This document shows positions 26,350-26,368 of a DNA stretch of 36,154 bases, piece by piece. Under the pieces are notes generated by a model. It had not been told where the DNA came from, did not search any database, and saw only the letters and a list, made by a program, of their open reading frames with translations. Numbering within the stretch: the stretch's first letter is position 1; every line of letters starts with the position of its first letter. Made by a program: the position numbers and the translations under genes. Source of the DNA: a virus (Duplodnaviria > Heunggongvirae > Uroviricota > Caudoviricetes); the IMG/VR virus record IMGVR_UViG_2568526086_000004, positions 1 to 36,154 of that record. One strand, 5' to 3'.

Positions 26350-26368
26350 CTCGTATCCCCGCCACGCC
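26350..26368. other. Candidate cos site (cohesive-end sequence)
   Basis: The reverse complement of 26350-26368 is GGCGTGGCGGGGATACGAG. Its first 13 nt match the 186/P2 cohesive-end consensus as I remember it (GGCG[T/A]GGCGGGGAAAGCA[T/C]). It lies in a GC-rich noncoding patch. Confidence 0.35.

Follow-up and report, generated by a model that had tools for sequence, protein, structure and literature searches.

A predicted cos site flanked by accessory genes in a Fels-2/186-type prophage

The interval between the portal and replication genes

We analysed a stretch of viral DNA of 36,154 nucleotides (nt) (IMG/VR record IMGVR_UViG_2568526086_000004; hereafter the window), which is a Fels-2/186-type prophage (Peduoviridae; P2/186/Fels-2-like) running in reverse to the standard P2 map. 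An initial annotation of this DNA had singled out a 19-mer at 26350-26368 as a candidate cohesive-end (cos) site, displaced about 2 kb from portal gene Q by inserted cargo. The location it gave, between the terminator of a lipoprotein gene and a three-gene cassette, is correct: a hairpin followed by UUUU lies on one side of the 19-mer and three open reading frames (ORFs) lie on the other. From Q to replication gene A, and leaving the SOS operon for later, the interval is organised as follows.

23258-24292, plus strand: portal gene Q (Pfam Phage_portal; homologues 93% identical in related prophages)
24293-24371, no strand: AT-rich spacer separating the Q stop from that of the cassette; a hairpin lies at 24316-24342 (-17.3 kcal/mol, z -2.5)
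24372-26235, minus strand: three-gene cargo cassette (231, 215 and 171 amino acids, aa), whose transcription leads away from cos and converges with that of Q
26344-26349, minus strand: left flank CGCGCG (YGCGCGY in P2, P4, 186 and PSP3), invariant in a six-phage alignment; the last conserved bases before the cargo
26350-26368, minus strand: predicted cohesive-end 19-mer (cosN), matching 186 and SEN8 and unique in the window
26369-26398, minus strand: right-end flank core GGTGCATGAAAACCACTACATAAAGCGGGCA, from the alignment and the locus survey
26399-26491, minus strand: extended conserved A-side block with GCATG/CATGC clusters, conserved to about +145 nt in 57 loci
26415-26440, minus strand: intrinsic terminator of the SOS operon, an inverted repeat inside the conserved cos block
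27919-30360, minus strand: replication gene A (Pfam Phage_GPA, 2e-127), the far boundary of the A-to-Q variable interval

The 19-mer and the annotated cohesive ends of related phages

Positions 26350-26368 read CTCGTATCCCCGCCACGCC on the plus strand and GGCGTGGCGGGGATACGAG on the minus strand. The leading 13 nt of the 19-mer are all identical to the annotated cohesive end of 186 (U32222, positions 1-19, GGCGTGGCGGGGAAAGCAT), and 12 of these 13 agree with that of P2 (NC_001895, positions 1-19, GGCGAGGCGGGGAAAGCAC); the 13-nt match from which the initial annotation had started is therefore real. Over the full length, 186 and PSP3 each share 15 of the 19 nt with the window, P2 and P4 share 14, and the 19-mer is related to the cohesive-end sequence GGCGWGGCGGGGAAAGCAY. 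The differences from 186 fall at positions 14, 16, 17 and 19. The entire 19-mer is identical to the cos annotated in Salmonella phage SEN8, and the same sequence accounts for 99 of 120 occurrences in IMG/VR. Its 3' third, TACGAG, is a variant of the Fels-2/SEN8 lineage, found in 99 of the 120 IMG/VR copies. In the literature, the exact 19-mer appeared only in the SEN8 genome announcement.

The exact 13-mer, GGCGWGGCGGGGA, has a single copy in the window. Allowing up to two mismatches gave four matches against 1.6 expected, the others needing two mismatches and lying inside tail genes. A search of the window for the full 186 19-mer with up to three mismatches returned no match, as four positions differ. 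We detected no second cos-like sequence in the window, and specifically none in the 79 nt that separate the Q stop from the cassette. The cassette lies between Q and the site, as had been proposed.

With the phage ends joined, the window aligns ungapped to P2, P4, 186 and PSP3 well past the 19-mer. The alignment with P2, 186 and PSP3, which the initial annotation had suggested as a check, places the site in register with conserved flanks. On the left, 5-6 of 7 positions match the reference phages, and on the right the identity to P2, P4, 186 and PSP3 is 72-81% over 36 nt, with no gaps. The window thus carries both conserved flanks, TGCAT.AAAACC....AAGYGGGCR on the right and YGCGCGY on the left. 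This alignment with four annotated cos sites and their flanks, together with the identity to the SEN8 cos, speaks for the proposal that the 19-mer is a cos site.

CGCGCG, the 19-mer and the 30-base right core form a block of 55 base pairs (bp). PMC5694545 cites Ziermann and Calendar 1990 for a 55-bp core common to P2 and P4, and we equate the block of the window with that core as it is cited there.

Conservation of the site across the lineage

We surveyed 80 loci encoding relatives of the window Q protein, taking one genome per species. On the Q-sense strand the 15-mer core CCCCGCCACGCCTGC was present 57 times, on the opposite strand not once. In every scored locus the motif was found between Q and A, and across 58 species-level prophage loci it had one orientation there, so that both its position and its orientation are fixed.

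In a conservation profile of 57 loci anchored on the 19-mer, Q-side columns were about 30-40% conserved as far as position -8, and the value rose to about 90-99% from position -7. High values persisted across the 19-mer and the next 145 nt or so towards A, and then conservation dropped; within the right-flank core (26369-26398) it was at least 85-99%. The same limits recur in E. coli. Of 5426 complete genomes of this species, 1277 carry the cos block, and most of the 12 E. coli matches that we sampled start at 26344 and end at about 26491. Homology with 60 phage records begins at 26344, and so does that with Fels-2 and Klebsiella phage 4LV2017.

The conserved 147-nt A-side flank holds five copies of GCATG/CATGC, against 0.31 expected from their density across the window. 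They form clusters at 26392-26406 and 26464-26491, one on each side of the terminator hairpin. We infer that these repeats are candidate recognition elements of the terminase (gpM). At about 100-115 nt upstream, P2, P4, 186 and PSP3 have additional TGCAT motifs in alignment with the window, and some of the GCATG/CATGC copies in the window align with TGCAT motifs of these four phages.

The terminator is a G+C hairpin of 11-12 bp (arms 26415-26426 and 26429-26440) followed by UUUU, with a folding energy of -24.9 kcal/mol (z -4.7), and it sits at the aligned position of the annotated 186 terminator t95b. An Rfam scan of 24000-28000 gave no match.

Distance between cos and the portal gene

In the window, 2057 nt separate the Q stop from the 19-mer. 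Among 58 species-level loci, this gap ranged from 148 to 5352 nt with a median of 1667 nt, and a cargo-free spacer (148-249 nt) was found in only nine. Among 83 IMG/VR loci, the range was 138-3528 nt and the median 1478 nt, with 23% of loci below 300 nt. In P2, 186 and PSP3, cos lies 167-178 nt from the portal stop. A cos at 0.6-3.5 kb from Q is the majority state, seen in 49 of the 58 species-level loci and in 77% of the 83 IMG/VR loci.

In this lineage, a portal gene separated from cos by about 2 kb of accessory genes is the usual and already described layout. The gap reported by the initial annotation is real, but describing the site as displaced overstates the case, since the arrangement is that of most relatives and has been in the literature since 1996. 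In 186-related prophages, according to literature that cites Dodd and Egan 1996, cargo lies between cos and the packaging gene.

A variable cargo slot on the Q side

Relatives that are otherwise collinear carry different genes between cos and Q, and the junctions are sharp, as expected of a cargo slot. In near-identical relatives, the A-side DNA is about 98% identical up to 26344 and completely divergent beyond it. The spacer of cargo-free loci (L015, L029, L030 and L034 were compared) contains the Q terminator (tQ) and about 90 nt of conserved sequence; in the window, tQ and the conserved spacer have all been replaced, up to the GCGCGCG adjoining the 19-mer. The G+C content is 29-37% across 24300-26250 versus 50-63% in P and Q, showing that the cargo is compositionally foreign.

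The cassette proteins had no match in Pfam, PADLOC, NCBIfam or a sequence search of the PDB, and the only PHROGs matched are of unknown function. Searches of INPHARED phages with tblastn and blastn found no match to the cassette, and a BFVD fold search was uninformative. The cassette is rare: it occurs in 6 of 5426 E. coli genomes, and the 231-aa protein has only 21 homologue clusters, of which the named ones are all from Enterobacteriaceae. The three genes travel together at 38-51% identity. Their homologues occupy the same cos-to-Q slot in other E. coli prophages, and they are also found in an unrelated prophage of Klebsiella michiganensis, where they separate the replication genes from the late genes. 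The only argument for a defence role is one of context, from this occupation of an accessory slot in an unrelated prophage. We tentatively raise the possibility that the cassette is an uncharacterised three-gene phage-carried accessory module, most plausibly acting in anti-phage defence or superinfection exclusion and moving as a unit between unrelated temperate phages, in which the first protein would adopt a pseudo-twofold alpha/beta fold that most resembles a guanidino (arginine/McsB) kinase catalytic domain. The cassette is the only mildly novel item of the locus, and the cos itself is without novelty.

We also considered whether the cassette might be the '3HP' (three hypothetical proteins) system of Rousset, and rejected this identification: the 3HP proteins have about 340, 350 and 230 aa, and 3HP lies on the A side of cos.

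The SOS operon and the lipoprotein gene on the A side

On the A side, the 19-mer is followed by a LexA-controlled operon.

27806-27826, minus strand: LexA box TACTGTAAATATAAACAGT, the only CTGT-N8-ACAG in the window, overlapping promoter-like sequence downstream of gene A
27577-27765, minus strand: 62-aa ORF, the first gene of the LexA-controlled operon (PHROG 698)
27333-27566, minus strand: DinI/TumB homologue (Pfam DinI, 1.2e-22; 78% identity to PSP3 TumB)
26542-27273, minus strand: predicted lipoprotein gene, the last in the SOS operon (243 aa, signal peptide and LTGC lipobox; PHROG 1353, function unknown)

The operon runs from the LexA box through the 62-aa ORF, the DinI-family gene and the lipoprotein gene to the terminator. 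With a LexA box and a Tum/DinI-type gene between A and cos, it is an SOS (tum) operon of the 186 type, and the succession of LexA box, small ORF and DinI is common to Fels-2 and other relatives. The DinI/TumB part of the operon is conserved 186/PSP3/Fels-2 backbone and not cargo. The 62-aa ORF has no detectable similarity to PSP3 TumA; if it encodes the antirepressor, this belongs to a different family.

Two size classes are seen for the distance from gpA to cos. Many relatives fall into that of about 793 nt, and the window, at 1553 nt, into that of about 1553 nt. Because the difference of about 760 nt between the classes approximates the length of the lipoprotein gene, these gap sizes suggest that the gene is optional A-side cargo. 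The initial annotation had proposed that cargo has accumulated on both flanks of the packaging site. This holds for the fully variable Q side and probably applies to the lipoprotein gene as well, but not to the DinI/TumB genes of the SOS operon, which are backbone.

The likely true start of the lipoprotein is an internal MKINN, 18 codons downstream. A homology with 186 Orf97, which is also 243 aa long and has the same operon position, was rejected, as BLASTP found no similarity.

Interpretation of the 19-mer as a packaging site

The terminase expected to act on the site, like the portal, is encoded by the same element as the 19-mer, as judged by Pfam matches of gpP, gpM and Q.

21495-23261, plus strand: terminase large subunit gene P (Pfam Terminase_5, Terminase_6N and Terminase_6C), the expected cos-cutting enzyme
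18790-19440, minus strand: terminase small subunit gene M (Pfam Phage_term_smal, 1.5e-39)

From these comparisons of sequence, we consider that the 19-mer is very probably where cos is nicked in a complete prophage of the Fels-2/186 type (Peduoviridae). Once the prophage has been induced and has replicated, its terminase (gpP with gpM) would recognise an island of about 148 bp (26344-26491), which consists of the 19-mer, 6-7 conserved portal-side bases and about 125-145 replication-side bases including the GCATG repeats. gpM and gpP would bind the conserved A-side block, possibly reading the GCATG/CATGC repeats. Nicks are predicted at the 26369/26368 junction of the minus strand and at the 26349/26350 junction of the plus strand, and would leave 19-nt 5' overhangs. 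The linear virion map anticipated by the initial annotation would follow from this site: the left end would be 5'-GGCGTGGCGGGGATACGAG, starting at 26368 and running to the cassette, Q and P, and the right end would stop at 26369 after the SOS operon, with the complementary overhang. Because the terminase would require hardly any sequence left of the nick, the DNA from cos to the Q terminator would tolerate replacement, and this replaceable slot would here be filled by the 1.9-kb three-gene accessory cassette.

Several observations weigh against this assignment. We found no end data for any phage with the exact 19-mer, and the SEN8 cos was itself assigned by annotation ('putative cos site') and not by end sequencing. 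Of the 119 IMG/VR contigs with the right-flank 19-mer, none ends at cos, and one contig from the ENA starts 13 nt before the 19-mer and not at it, which we take to be an assembly break. Moreover, as the 19-mer differs from that of 186 at positions 14, 16, 17 and 19, the position of the bottom-strand nick is extrapolated from 186 and P2. Finally, the int side of the prophage lies beyond the end of the window, so intactness is only partly verified. Among the Logan and ENA contigs with cassette homologues, none ends at cos.

The alternative that survives best accepts the 19-mer as a genuine cos homologue, but one that is unused, the prophage being defective or the site a decaying relic that is no longer cut. 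It would agree with an int gene that runs off the window end and with the general knowledge that many P2-like prophages in genomes are cryptic. We nevertheless regard it as unlikely: the 148-bp island is essentially identical to those of Fels-2 and SEN8, all the head, tail, lysis, terminase, replication and regulatory genes that we checked are full-length ORFs, and a decaying relic would not retain 19/19 identity together with its flanks.

Still less probable, in our judgement, is that the real packaging site lies elsewhere and that the island has been kept chiefly for some other role, for instance in terminating the operon, as a regulatory RNA or as the site where cassettes are exchanged by recombination. 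The strong terminator inside the island and the coincidence of the island with the exact junction of cargo swapping would fit such a role. On the other hand, the window has no other cos-like sequence and the island has no Rfam match. Furthermore, the most conserved part of the island is the 55 bp aligned with the cos of P2, P4 and 186, not the hairpin, and P2 lacks the hairpin yet keeps the core.

A chance G+C-rich resemblance to the cos consensus, which might be invoked since the contiguous match to 186 covers only 13 bases, is already refuted by the locus survey and the flank alignment: chance would yield about 0.002 exact 13-mers in 36 kb (from 4^13) and one is present, the 36-nt flank resembles four reference phages in register, and position and strand are fixed in 57 loci.

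Relation to known systems

The assignment of the 19-mer as cos makes the locus an ordinary instance of a documented arrangement that is already known. Its closest counterparts are SEN8 (KT630647.2, Felsduovirus) and Fels-2 (NC_010463), which share with the window the identical 19-mer, a right flank at 97% identity, the same CGCGCG and the same order of SOS/DinI operon, cos, accessory genes and portal. The SEN8 record starts with the 19-mer and ends with the homologous right flank, and has two ORFs (2.2 kb) from cos to the portal. The genes in this slot are unrelated among the three: SEN8 has its two ORFs, including a putative HNH endonuclease, Fels-2 a single 565-aa ORF, and the window the three-gene cassette. 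Since SEN8 was propagated from a plaque and purified on caesium chloride, a phage with such a layout is viable.

186 and PSP3 (Eganvirus) share with the window bases 1-13 of the cohesive end, the right-flank core, YGCGCGY and a LexA-controlled operon with a DinI/TumB-type gene. They also have a hairpin terminator about 50 nt before cos, the SOS (p95-tum) operon of 186 ending at t95b. They differ from the window at positions 14, 16, 17 and 19 of the 19-mer, in a cargo-free spacing of 176-178 nt between the portal stop and cos, and in the first and last genes of the SOS operon, which are unrelated.

As described in the literature, the slot between cos and the portal terminator of 186-related prophages is the same slot, in the same lineage, as that of the window. 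Klebsiella phage 4LV2017 carries a reverse transcriptase and a hypothetical protein in this slot, next to the same cos block. The window cargo is not a retron, and the Q terminator itself has apparently been replaced.

The interval between gpA and gpQ is known as a cos-adjacent defence hotspot of P2-like phages, and the hotspot of P4 also adjoins cos (Rousset et al. 2022, PMC9122126; NAR 2026, PMC13586616). The window resembles the P2-like and P4 hotspots in the high turnover of short AT-rich cassettes, and with the former it shares the very interval. In the P4 hotspot clones of Rousset Table S2 that include cos, the cargo begins 6-7 nt after the 19-mer, after YGCGCG, which is the junction seen in the window. 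The hotspots of helper and satellite have an identical boundary at cos. The validated '3HP' system lies on the A side of the same cos block (PMC9122126), and the window cassette matches none of the validated hotspot systems. Whereas the hotspot papers treat the stretch from A to Q as one, in this lineage it comprises two cargo slots separated by the 148-bp cos island.

The near absence of conservation on the portal side is useful for the design of P2/P4-type cosmids and for mining hotspots with exact boundaries. For the rest, the result mostly tidies the annotation and leaves knowledge of packaging and hotspot biology unchanged.

Other genes of the prophage

The stretches between the packaging, replication and regulatory genes hold ORFs for head, tail and lysis, with the sizes expected. 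Two further regulatory genes were located.

34133-34708, plus strand: 186-type CI repressor gene
2856-3107, minus strand: ogr

Just past ogr, a host gene for a 561-aa Asp-Al_Ex/TrkA_C transporter (935-2620, plus strand) marks the ogr-side edge of the prophage. A 336-aa ORF with a PAPS-reductase domain (30357-31367, minus strand) separates gene A from a Dam methylase gene (31364-32272). The corresponding two genes adjoin directly in Fels-2, so the PAPS-reductase ORF looks like a further accessory insertion. Finally, a 250-aa ORF without a Pfam match (15126-15878, plus strand) lies on the opposite strand between the tail genes at 14455-15033 and 15915-16367, and is probably another cargo slot, comparable to the orf30 and Z-fun positions of P2.
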